Positions 60,326 to 62,414 of a DNA stretch of 64,000 nt are shown piece by piece. A model generated the notes under the pieces. That model saw only the letters and a program-made list of their open reading frames with translations, was not told the DNA's origin and ran no database searches. The translations under genes and the position numbers were made by a program. The stretch is from an uncultured delta proteobacterium (lineage in GTDB: Bacteria > Desulfobacterota > Binatia > UBA9968): contig CAVWLW010000045.1 in NCBI GenBank assembly GCA_963755715.1, positions 43,425-107,424 on the forward strand, read 5' to 3'. Every line of letters starts with the position of its first letter. Within the stretch, counting starts at the first letter, position 1.

Positions 60326-61299
60326 ATGAATTACGTCAACACGCACAAGCCTACCAATCGTACGTTTGCTGTAATCGACGGCGGATTGAATCTCAAAGCT
60401 AGCGTCGAGCCGCTTATAACAACTCAGAAACCGAGATTGCTCGACCAAGTCAGGCAGGCGATTCGCACGCGGCACTATAGCTACAGGACCGAGAAAGCCT
60501 ATGTGCATTGGATCAAGCGATACATATTTTTCCATGACAAACGCCATCCGGCTGAAATGGCCGAATTTGAAATTGGGCGATTTCTTTCAAGTCTTGCGAC
60601 GGAGGGGCACGTCAGTGCCTCCACGCAAAATCAAGCATTCAATGCGCTTTTGTTTCTGTACCATGAAGTCTTGGACAAGAAGATCGGGCTCATCGACGGT
60701 GTCGTGCGCGCGAAGAGGCCTGAGCGACTGCCAGTCGTGCTCACGAAAGACGAAGTCAAGAAAGTGATCGATCACATAACCGGCGTCCCGCGTTTGATGG
60801 CGATTCTGCTCTATGGTGCCGGCTTACGATTGATGGAATGTTGCCGGCTTCGAGTCAAGGACATCGATTTTTCTCGCAACGAGATTGTTGTTCGATCGGG
60901 AAAAGGGAACAAAGATCGCTACACGATGCTACCCAGCGCGGTTCGAGATTCGTTGGTCCAACATCTTCGAGACGTTCGTGCACAACACGAAGCGGATCTA
61001 AAACGGGGCTTGGCCGGGTTTCATTGCCGGATGCTCTGGACCGAAAATATTCCAGCGCCGGTAAAGAATGGGGCTGGCAATGGGTTTTTCCGGCCACCAG
61101 TCATTTCACCGATCGGGTCACGGGCGAACAGCGCCGGCATCATCTCCACGAATCCGTGTTGCAACGCGCATTTAAAGAAGCGCGGCTCAAAACCGGAGTT
61201 TTCAAACCGGCAGGGTGCCATACATTGCGTCATTCATTTGCGACGCACTTGCTGGAGGACGGTTACGATATTCGAACCGTCCAAGAATTGTTGGGGCAT
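60326..61299 (+). CDS. intI: Integron integrase, 5' segment (ends at LLGH; also a 1-nt apparent frameshift ~61005)
   Basis: AAGGAG RBS; LLDQVR...[29 protein letters not shown], IntI-specific patch ALDRKY...WQWVFPA...[27 protein letters not shown]. Confidence 0.95.
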
Positions 61300-61582
61300 T
61301 CACCCCGTGAGATAGGTTTATGCAACAACACTACTATGTCTATGTCTTAAGATCTTTCAAGGACAAACAGTTCTATGTTGGATTCACCAAGAATCTGCCA
61401 GCAAGAGTTGAGGCTCACAACAAGGGCTTGGTTCCGTCCACGAGAAACCGATTGCCCTTGCAACTTGTCTACTGGGAGGGCTGCCTCAACCAGACAGACG
61501 CAACGCATCGAGAAAAATACTTGAAGACCGCTTGGGGAAAGCGATACGTGAAAACGAGGCTCAGAAATTATCTCACGGGGTA
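61300..61582. mobile_element. 283-bp inverted-repeat-bounded insertion carrying a GIY-YIG gene, inside intI (boundaries may slide by up to 3 nt)
   Basis: ACCCCGTGAGATA (61302-61314) and TATCTCACGGGGT (61569-61581) form a perfect 13-bp IR; removal rejoins LLGH to xDVSTTMIYTH. Confidence 0.9.
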
Positions 61583-61583
61583 A
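61320..61583 (+). CDS. Stand-alone GIY-YIG nuclease (87 aa)
   Basis: YYVYVL...FYVGFT...RVEAHN...ST..R.P..LVY.E...A..RE.YLK. Confidence 0.92.
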
Positions 61584-61687
61584 ACGACGTAAGCACGACA
61601 ATGATTTACACGCATGTATTAAATCGAGGCGGCAAGGGCGTTCACAGTCCGGCGGATAGGTTAGGGTTTGATTCCGCGCGACCGTAA
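61583..61687 (+). CDS. intI: Integron integrase, 3' segment containing the catalytic Tyr
   Basis: Translated by hand: [34 protein letters not shown]; Tyr codon TAC at 61607-61609. Confidence 0.93.
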   Translation, partial: NDVSTTMIYTHVLNRGGKGVHSPADRLGFDSARP

Positions 61688-61784
61688 CCGACAAAGGCTG
61701 ACATATGCGCAGTGTTCGCCGGAATACTTTTTCGTTGTTAAGCGTTGAAAACAATTATAGGATTGCTCAAATTCATGAATTTGT

Positions 61785-61823
61785 CGGTCGGAAAAGACTG
61801 ACCGATTCACTTAATAGTTAGGC
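61785..61823 (+). other. Putative attI (core GTTAGGC at 61817-61823)
   Basis: GTTRRRY just before the first cassette gene, complementary to the GCCTAAC of attC1; not preceded by an attC. Confidence 0.7.
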
Positions 61824-61836
61824 GCACAAAACGAAA

Positions 61837-62330
61837 ATGCGTGCCTCAGCGAAACTGATCTTCTTGTGTGGAAAAATGGCGGCAGGCAAATCGACTCTCG
61901 CGAGAGATTTGGCAGAGCGGGGAAATGCCGTCCTTCTGGTGCAGGACGAACTGATAGATAGGTTGTTCCCTGGGAGATCACTGACATACCAGGATTCGTC
62001 AAGTACTCATCCCGACTCAAGGATGCGCTTGCGCCTCATATTTGCTCTCTACTGTCGAAAGGCATCTCTGTTGTGCTCGACTTTCCCGGCAACACGAAAA
62101 CGCAGCGCGCGTGGTTTCGCCAGTTATTTGAAAACGCAAATGCTGAACATGAACTGCATTTTGTAGACGCGCCGGATGCCTTGTGCAAACGTCAACTCAA
62201 GGATCGAAGCAAAGATCTTCCTCCTGGCAGCGCCTGGACAACGGATGCAGATTTCGAAGCGATCACCGTATATTTCCAGCCTCCTTCAGAGGAAGAAGGG
62301 TTTAATGTCGTCCATCACAAGCGCGCCTAA
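61837..62330 (+). CDS. Cassette 1: AAA_33-type P-loop kinase/ATP-binding protein; apparent frameshift ~61975
   Basis: CGKMAAGKST Walker A; VLDFPGNT...R; YFQPPSEEEGF. Confidence 0.85.
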
Positions 62331-62414
62331 CAACACGCTGGTTCCGACGGCCAAATCGCTGCGCGCTTTGGTTCCCTCCCGTTGGTCGGCCGCGGCACAG
62401 CGTGCGCGTTAGGC
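62325..62414 (+). other. attC site 1 (90 bp)
   Basis: R'' GCCTAAC, L'' GCTGGTTC, L' GCACAGC, R' GTTAGGC; overlaps the cassette 1 stop codon. Confidence 0.9.

Follow-up and report, generated by a model that had tools for sequence, protein, structure and literature searches.

In the Ssn/NTS system, the gene of SsnA, a single-domain GIY-YIG enzyme of 94 amino acids, is flanked by a hairpin repeat, and the enzyme acts on single-stranded DNA only and cuts it beside this repeat (PMC11893778). The position of the cut differs by 1 nucleotide (nt) among SsnA homologs (PMC11893778), and the authors likened the NTS-ssnA-NTS arrangement to an insertion sequence (IS) (Chenal et al., Nat Commun 2025, PMC11893778). 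Here we describe an element of 283 base pairs (bp) that interrupts an integron integrase gene (intI) in a 64,000-nt stretch of contig CAVWLW010000045.1 (assembly GCA_963755715.1) from an uncultured delta proteobacterium (Desulfobacterota; Binatia; UBA9968), the whole of which is referred to below as the window. The only gene of the element encodes a single-domain GIY-YIG nuclease of 87 amino acids, and its only cis-acting site is the terminal inverted repeat. By the type of protein and by the link to a hairpin, the closest published system is Ssn/NTS with its SRM hairpin repeats. We consider it probable that the sequence is an autonomous, horizontally mobile, IS-like element of an undescribed family, which moves via a hairpin of single-stranded DNA that its own nuclease cuts. 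It is well supported that the family consists of mobile DNA that moves horizontally, including between phyla, and we infer the chemistry of its movement and the cause of its preference for intI.

The two systems share nucleases made up of one GIY-YIG domain of about 90 amino acids and genes bracketed by hairpin-forming repeats that are also found as many copies without an open reading frame (ORF), and the cleavage of single-stranded DNA beside a hairpin that is published for Ssn is the activity that the model set out below needs. Whereas the Ssn gene, as described there, lies between two complete hairpins, the present gene lies between the two arms of a single one, its coding sequence includes the right arm, and the target completes its stop codon; mobility, gene disruption, and a link to integrases do not appear in the main text of PMC11893778. 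With IS200/IS605 and REP/RAYT elements, the element shares its very small size, hairpin cis sites, insertion beside a short sequence without target duplication, a strong orientation bias, and miniature hairpin derivatives. It differs from IS200/IS605 in that it encodes a GIY-YIG hydrolase, with which no covalent intermediate is possible, and not the HUH (Y1) tyrosine transposase TnpA, in that it has one long-range terminal repeat of 16 bp in place of separate imperfect subterminal hairpins, and in that it shows no evident guide sequence and has cut positions that vary by 1 nt. GIY-YIG homing endonucleases, such as I-TevI and the free-standing Seg enzymes of phages, have the same catalytic fold and also spread selfishly into conserved gene positions, with the same site re-invaded in diverged alleles, but in the present case there is no DNA-binding domain and no intron or intein, the frame of the host gene is broken, and many sites per lineage occur together with terminal repeats and mini derivatives. 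Integron cassettes and their attC sites have in common with the element the integron link and a folded single-stranded hairpin as the likely active form. In attC, however, R'' (RYYYAAC) precedes R' (GTTRRRY) and the hairpin follows the ORF, whereas here the arms read (G)TTCAC...GTGAA(C), with the polarity of the triplets reversed and no extrahelical bases, the hairpin encloses the ORF, and insertion is into the coding sequence of the integrase. Classical IS elements and miniature inverted-repeat transposable elements that depend on a DDE transposase share the terminal repeats; their direct target duplication is not seen here. We know of no characterised bacterial transposable element whose sole enzyme is a GIY-YIG nuclease. 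In the full-text literature, with subscription journals and ISfinder outside this scope, neither GIY-YIG elements in integrase genes nor a bacterial transposon with GIY-YIG alone was found to have been described; the subfamily of the element might be listed in the supplement of the Ssn paper.

The element occupies positions 61300 to 61582 on the + strand and consists of TCA, a 278-nt core that runs from CCCC to GGGG, and TA. The left arm of its inverted repeat (TTCACCCCGTGAGATA, 61299–61314, + strand) begins with a target-derived T (61299), which is the last base of a His codon of intI, and the right arm (TATCTCACGGGGTAAA, 61569–61584, + strand) encodes the residues YLTG and the stop codon and ends with two bases (61583–61584) that also derive from the target. 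The arms, of 16 nt each, are complementary at 15 of 16 positions (94%) and lie 254 nt apart; the conserved core of the repeat is 12 bp, and 16 bp are reached with bases that are partly owned by the target. The nuclease ORF (87 amino acids plus stop, 61320–61583, + strand) is the only one in the insert, and the final A of its stop codon TAA (61581–61583) is the first base of an Asn codon of intI. Residues 5 to 73 of the 87 match PF01541 (GIY-YIG; E = 3.7e-13, 50 bits), and the only other Pfam match, to T5orf172 (PF10544), overlaps this one and is weaker (19.8 bits against a cut-off of 20), the protein being the catalytic domain alone. NCBIfam has no family for it, and its only relatives of solved structure are the UPF0213 proteins 1zg2 (E = 1.7e-6) and 1ywl (E = 4.4e-6). 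When the element was folded as single-stranded DNA, the closing stem was kept in both the minimum free energy and the centroid structures (z = -2.96). A group I or group II intron was rejected, as no Rfam family, and hence no ribozyme, matched at E ≤ 1 within 61100–61800 and the interior is one ORF.

The insertion separates the 5' part of intI (60326–61299, + strand), which ends with the His codon of the LLGH motif (61297–61299) and contains a 1-nt frameshift near 61004, from the 3' part (61583–61687, + strand), which includes the region of the catalytic Tyr. The flanks match the integron integrase profile TIGR02249 over profile positions 1–191 (249 bits) and 187–288 (151 bits), and the downstream piece aligns to the COOH-terminus of intact relatives that read unbroken across the insertion point. 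Given that the insertion leaves a truncated IntI from which the catalytic-tyrosine region has been removed, this integrase is, as judged from its sequence, inactive. Removal of 61300–61582 in silico restores the reading found in the intact proteins P0124, P0129, and P0127, and there is no target duplication at either junction in the window. The initial annotation of this locus, which was made from the sequence alone, had placed the insert directly after the His codon of LLGH, had described a perfect inverted repeat of 13 bp (15 of 16 when extended) and an ORF ending with YLTG in the right repeat, and had proposed that uninterrupted relatives be used to set the boundaries. The alignment, the repeat search, and that comparison agree with each of these statements and with the length of 283 bp, and only the end of the insert has to be moved from 61583 to 61582, since 61583, where the stop codon ends, is a base of the target.

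The ATG follows the left arm after 5 nt, and the loop is otherwise coding throughout. Immediately upstream of the ATG, the left arm region (61303–61319; alignment columns 9–24) contains stop codons (TGA, and TAA or TAG) in two of the three frames. At integrase sites 105, 178, and 329 (sites are numbered here and below by the residues of P0124), these codons end the host frame in or just after the left arm, only a few bases short of the ATG. This arrangement suggests that translation of the ORF is coupled to that of the host gene. A scan of the + strand in and before the element revealed no promoter-like site.

The presence of the insertion was confirmed in other samples. About 0.7 of the words sampled from 60900–62000 were present in 14 DNA runs belonging to 7 soil or rhizosphere studies. 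A 1201-nt contig of one run (X3) spans 60627–61653 and thereby contains integrase sequence and both junctions, and contigs of two further runs (X1 and X4) span 61294–61653, in all cases with no gap in the element. An assembly chimera, which the initial annotation had named as an outcome that would undo its interpretation, is ruled out by these independent soil assemblies, which bridge the junctions. One contig of run X1 does not contain the element and joins 61295 to 61592 via 12 other letters in one frame (His-Arg-Asp-Val); this contig represents the integrase allele of a relative that is about 96% identical. The allele reads C↓AGA at the insertion point (the arrow marks the position of the insertion) and thus lacks the target T↓AA. 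An RNA run (X15) yielded one contig over the ORF and the right junction, which is unspliced and is not proof of transcription.

Relatives of the protein numbered 2705 at E ≤ 1e-3. The best 120 of these are 70–100% identical to it, are mostly of exactly 87 amino acids, and come from several phyla, with Acidobacteriota, Bacteroidota, Chthoniobacterales, and Entotheonellia among the source names. No relatives were found in viral contigs, and plasmids gave only two matches, of 35–37% identity. A genome scan with one genome per species returned 320 relatives, from which the best 80 loci were taken for analysis. The same arms bracket the ORF in 79 of these 80 other loci, the 80th of which ends at a contig end, and the 79 loci contain 82 full elements, many of them interrupting intI, with relatives in such genes of many soil and water bacteria. 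Homologs that end with LTG and a stop codon are therefore flanked by CCCCGT..ACGGGG and do interrupt genes, as the initial annotation had proposed to examine.

The arms are kept across phyla, with covariation, and the repeat is not a product of chance. In an alignment of 78 elements, standard pairs were found in 92.8% of the 1247 cells of the 16-bp stem, compared with 25–52% of cells for controls in which the partner was slid, and two-sided (compensatory) changes affected 6 of the 16 stem pairs (25 cells), a level that was reached by none of 500 shuffles. The third position from the outside shows a C·A mismatch in 53 of the 78 elements, with the result that the hairpins of the two strands differ. 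The YLTG residues and the catalytic-type residues are invariant among the relatives, and dN/dS values of 0.07–0.29 for pairs of full ORFs indicate purifying selection. The genome of the window contains three further paralogs with 34–35% identity and no convincing repeats. Elsewhere, distant small GIY-YIG paralogs were observed with inverted repeats of their own that differ from those described here (L111 at G004:C68, 15 of 16 nt; L113 at G003:C243, 12 of 13 nt), and the hairpin-enclosed arrangement may be general for several subfamilies.

The bases that flank the elements define a short target. At 91 boundaries, position -1 is T in 83, +1 is R in 89, +2 is A in 87, and +3 is A in 83, and nothing is conserved beyond this T↓RAA motif. 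These counts of flank bases were used throughout; a crude clustering of site classes merged unrelated sites, and its class count was set aside. Beyond the core, four bases are inserted at most sites (a left TCA and a right T in the case of sites 178 and 193 and of most site-329 loci), five (TCA and TA) in the window and at most LLGH sites, and three in L020 and L027, and a single fixed boundary rule for all insertions fails for this reason. Because the target bases pair with the outer bases of the element, the finished stem is always 16 bp (TTCA...TRAA), and T together with RA always forms the stop codon of the ORF, the last two bases of which are supplied by the target. No target duplication was found at any junction read; duplications of 1 nt or 2 nt and P-nucleotide-like additions were ruled out by this reading of the junctions.

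Movement of the family as DNA is indicated by its short derivatives. The 80 loci also hold 18 copies that have no ORF or are internally deleted, with cores of 30–102 nt, and several of these follow a full copy in head-to-tail order, joined to it as GGGG-TTCA-CCCC, which is expected if a copy inserts after the GGGGT of a resident copy. A metagenome scan for arm cores 4–34 nt apart gave at least 119 stretches with mini hairpins. In minis with differing outer bases, the four outer positions were paired in 44–60 of 80, compared with about 30 expected by chance. A small hairpin array was noted in a Pirellulales genome (L062, 1765–1968), where at least four mini hairpins stand in direct tandem behind a full copy. 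A 58-nt mini family from the metagenome (L149, L155, L179, L146, and L163) carries similar 10-nt words of the CAGTAAGCAG type on both sides, and may lie inside a larger repeat or mark a different mode of insertion.

The elements are also far less diverged than the genes that hold them. At a shared integrase site, the proportion of synonymous differences (pS) was 0.158 for the elements and 0.737 for the intI genes in the pair L037/L043 (93% identity of the element core), 0.342 and 0.778 in the pair formed by the window and L013 (89%), and 0.342 and 0.768 in the pair L016/L075 (82%). The protein tree groups mainly by host phylum, and one clade of seven rows (support 99/94) contains elements at integrase sites 105, 178, and 326, with another bringing together sites 66, 105, and 178 and intergenic copies. 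The element of the window pairs with one from Bacteroidota (92% identical, support 100/90), and the integrases of these two hosts differ by 22% at nonsynonymous sites. The proposal of the initial annotation, a very small selfish element outside the IS, intron, and intein classes, is supported. The minis, the tandems, the youth of the elements relative to their host genes, and the insert-free allele together favor one of the two roles that had been suggested for the terminal stem, that of a hairpin for the mobility of DNA, over the other, that of a closing stem for removal from RNA, which is taken up below. Two further integrase loci show remnants: in L053, a 96-nt mini copy (1084–1180) stands where integrase residues of about 100–247 are missing, a gap that could have arisen by deletion between two copies of the element, and in L086 a second, decayed element (1940–2319) lies in the same integrase gene near residue 252, with arms that show a compensatory change (CCAC opposite GTGG) and an ORF that is interrupted by about 100 nt of other DNA.

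To account for these features, we propose that the arms would pair on single-stranded DNA, such as the template of the lagging strand, with the ORF as the loop. The nuclease, like the Ssn enzymes, would then bind this hairpin and nick the strand at the foot of the stem on both sides, a cutting step that is borrowed by analogy from the activity of SsnA. The nicks would be staggered by 1–2 nt: the 5' one would precede TCA, and the 3' one would follow GGGGT or GGGGTA. The short 5' overhang of the released hairpin would anneal to the RA of a target that had been cut at T↓RAA, and the two resulting junctions would then be nicks within the element's own stem, which host ligase could seal. Such a model accounts for the composite stem, the absence of duplication, the play of 1 nt, the tandems after GGGGT, the minis that consist of arms only, and the single orientation.

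Several observations weigh against this reading. GIY-YIG enzymes hydrolyse DNA and keep no covalent link, and the rejoining must therefore fall to host enzymes, a step for which the model relies purely on what we infer. The target motif is too short to explain why 43–55 of the 82 full copies are in integrase-type genes, and the extra inserted bases are not constant (3, 4, or 5). The genome of the window holds a single copy and no mini copies, which lends no support to activity in this host, and the insert-free X1 allele is shorter by 284 nt (in the coordinates of the tool), as against an insert of 283 bp. The assembled contigs, which hide rare forms, showed neither an excision product or circle nor an empty donor site from the same strain. 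The published SRM search motif gave no match in the 64-kb window on either strand and none in the 81 minis.

The 82 full elements have IntI-like matches on both sides in 43 cases, on one side in 12, and on neither in 27. The integrase positions number at least 10 (about 66, 105, 139, 178, 193, 239, 252, 309, 317, 326, 329, and 334), and those with several members coincide with the most conserved motifs of the enzyme: QAL↓N, RLRV↓K, RDG↓KG, LLGH↓K, and DV↓KTT. When nine host gene parts were scanned, five passed the curated integron integrase cut-off despite being fragments, one short fragment scored 182 bits, and three were Xer-like relatives below the cut-off. All 104 of 104 integrase matches are on the strand of the GIY-YIG ORF. 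Five whole genomes were compared: the first has three integron integrase genes, two of which are interrupted, and three close copies of the element; in the second, both close copies are inside its single integrase gene; in the third, the only close copy is in the integrase; the fourth has three uninterrupted integrase genes (two with one stop codon within the match) and its close copy elsewhere; and the fifth (G005) contains the element and has no match above the integron integrase cut-off. For ten copies outside integrase genes, the longest abutting open frame, chosen by hand, was scanned, and all ten frames are on the strand of the element. In five of the ten, a gene begins just after the element, encoding metF (L034), a sulfotransferase (L044 and L065), ORF6N (L054), or a phosphorylase (L090); in two (L028 and L068), an ftsY-type gene ends just before it; and in three, the abutting frame had no family match. 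Of the mini copies (81 in 80 metagenome loci), none has integrase sequence on both sides and two have it nearby, one of these two being the tandem partner of a full copy. This preference for integrase genes at many positions was not foreseen in the initial annotation, and neither was the likeness to Ssn/NTS, published in 2025.

With a target so short and with minis that avoid integrase genes, recognition of integrase DNA is unlikely, and the excess of full copies in intI is probably not due to recognition of the target. As a possible cause of the preference, full copies might survive only at sites that let a host gene of the same direction drive the ORF and whose disruption does no harm or is of use; the lack of a promoter-like site in the full copy of the window points to such a dependence on a co-oriented host gene. 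Active integrases carry a fitness cost, and intI is under SOS control. In this proposal, intI would be a dispensable gene, its conserved motifs would repeatedly offer T↓RAA, and integrons would carry the elements between hosts.

Of the alternatives, the one that survives best, although we regard it as unlikely, is a homing endonuclease gene without an intron or intein, in which the enzyme would cut the duplex of an empty intI, repair would copy the element into it, and the repeat would serve expression or stability. The site LLGH↓K/N is occupied in integrases whose synonymous sites are saturated by elements that are 82–93% identical, and the sites with several members are the most conserved integrase motifs, both as homing would predict. 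Flank identity also peaks in the 30 nt at the junction (83% and 93% for L037/L043) and falls to 50–67% further out, but high identity near the junction is likewise expected from conservation of the motif alone, and the test for co-conversion, in which flank identity is compared with distance, is confounded in this manner. The insert-free allele differs mostly in 12 nt at the junction and is without T↓AA, which again fits homing. On the other hand, close elements are found at sites 105, 178, and 326 and in intergenic DNA, and not at one site per lineage. I-TevI-type enzymes read long targets via a DNA-binding domain, and a protein of 87 amino acids without such a domain cannot recognise 10 or more long targets. 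Homing furthermore does not require a terminal repeat that covaries, and it leaves the ORF-less minis consisting of arms only and the tandems unexplained. A share of true homing by recombination at conserved motifs may exist beside the hairpin-mediated movement that we favor.

Somewhat less credible is a reversible switch, in which stress would trigger precise excision of the DNA and the interrupted integrase would be kept as a restorable gene. By a hand count from the matches, about 29 of the interrupted integrase genes have no other break and about 9 do. The frame and the conserved residues return at nearly all sites once the insert is removed, and the allele of the window is free of frameshifts in other samples. 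The elements are, however, much younger than their host genes, which is enough to account for the intact flanks. If one fixed rule is used for the removal, a frameshift remains at L016, L075, L020, and L027, some integrase genes contain two elements or a decayed one (L024 and L086), and no excised form was seen, although contigs cannot show one.

A further alternative, which is highly improbable, holds that the element mimics attC, carries the GIY-YIG gene as cargo, and is mobilised by the integron integrase or by a tyrosine recombinase related to it. In its favor, folded single-stranded hairpins are known substrates for recombination by integrases, and the association with genes for integron integrases and Xer-like recombinases is strong. 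Yet the stem has no R and L boxes, bears its GTT in the 5' arm and its AAC in the 3' arm, opposite to the order in attC, and has one C·A mismatch as its only irregularity, with no extrahelical bases. The crossover would be G↓TR and not G↓TT, and insertions are in coding sequence and not in attI or attC. Minis show integrase on both sides in 0 of 81 cases and nearby in 2 of 81, genome G005 has elements and no match above the integron integrase cut-off, and the element destroys the very enzyme it would need. The least probable explanation, to which we give almost no credence, is an intervening sequence removed from RNA by cutting of the closing stem and rejoining of the integrase message, for although the stem would bring the integrase halves together and the host genes are mostly intact, there is no RNA family match at E ≤ 1, the left arm leaves only 5 nt before the ATG of a loop that is coding throughout, the bases to be removed for the frame vary relative to the stem (3+1, 3+2, and 2+1), many copies are intergenic or ORF-less, and the single RNA contig (X15) crosses the right junction unspliced.

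The interrupted intI heads a real integron, as indicated by an attC site. A GTTAGGC core site on the attI side (61817–61823, + strand) marks the start of the first cassette, the attC of which (GCCTAAC ... GTTAGGC) is at 62325–62414 on the + strand; the cassettes and intI have the same direction, which corresponds to the inverted integrase orientation. Contigs from other samples break at 61817 and 62414 (the matches of three runs end at 62414), as expected if the first cassette is also part of other arrays. In the contigs of runs X1, X3, and X4, one extra G follows 61004, which restores the integrase frame, and one extra A follows 61973, which joins the halves of the ORF of the first cassette (61837–62330). 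Given these extra bases in three other runs, the frameshifts of the window are assembly errors or strain specific and are separate from the finding of the element. Protein P0122, which is 96% identical and has the same insertion without the frameshift, agrees with the contigs of the other runs. The + strand of the window has a positive GC skew throughout, which fits an active strand on the lagging-strand template, a single case that is confounded with gene direction.

The Ssn paper, in its main text, raised the possibility of an insertion-sequence origin without showing movement, and the family described here adds gene disruptions, an insert-free allele, minis, tandems, and transfer between phyla. 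With 283 bp and one protein of 87 amino acids, the element offers a compact and testable system for studying how a plain hydrolase can move DNA, and such nuclease-hairpin pairs may add to the known site-specific cutters of single-stranded DNA. The element is also a frequent natural cause of integrase loss in environmental integrons, and surveys and annotation that score the presence of intI should take it into account. The family may even represent a new class of prokaryotic transposon, with a single-domain GIY-YIG nuclease as the one enzyme that it encodes, movement as a single-stranded hairpin, and the stem as a ligation splint into T↓RAA, that acts as a specialised parasite or reversible off-switch of intI; we put this forward tentatively, as a possibility somewhat short of even. 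If true, it would bear on how integrons are silenced in nature.

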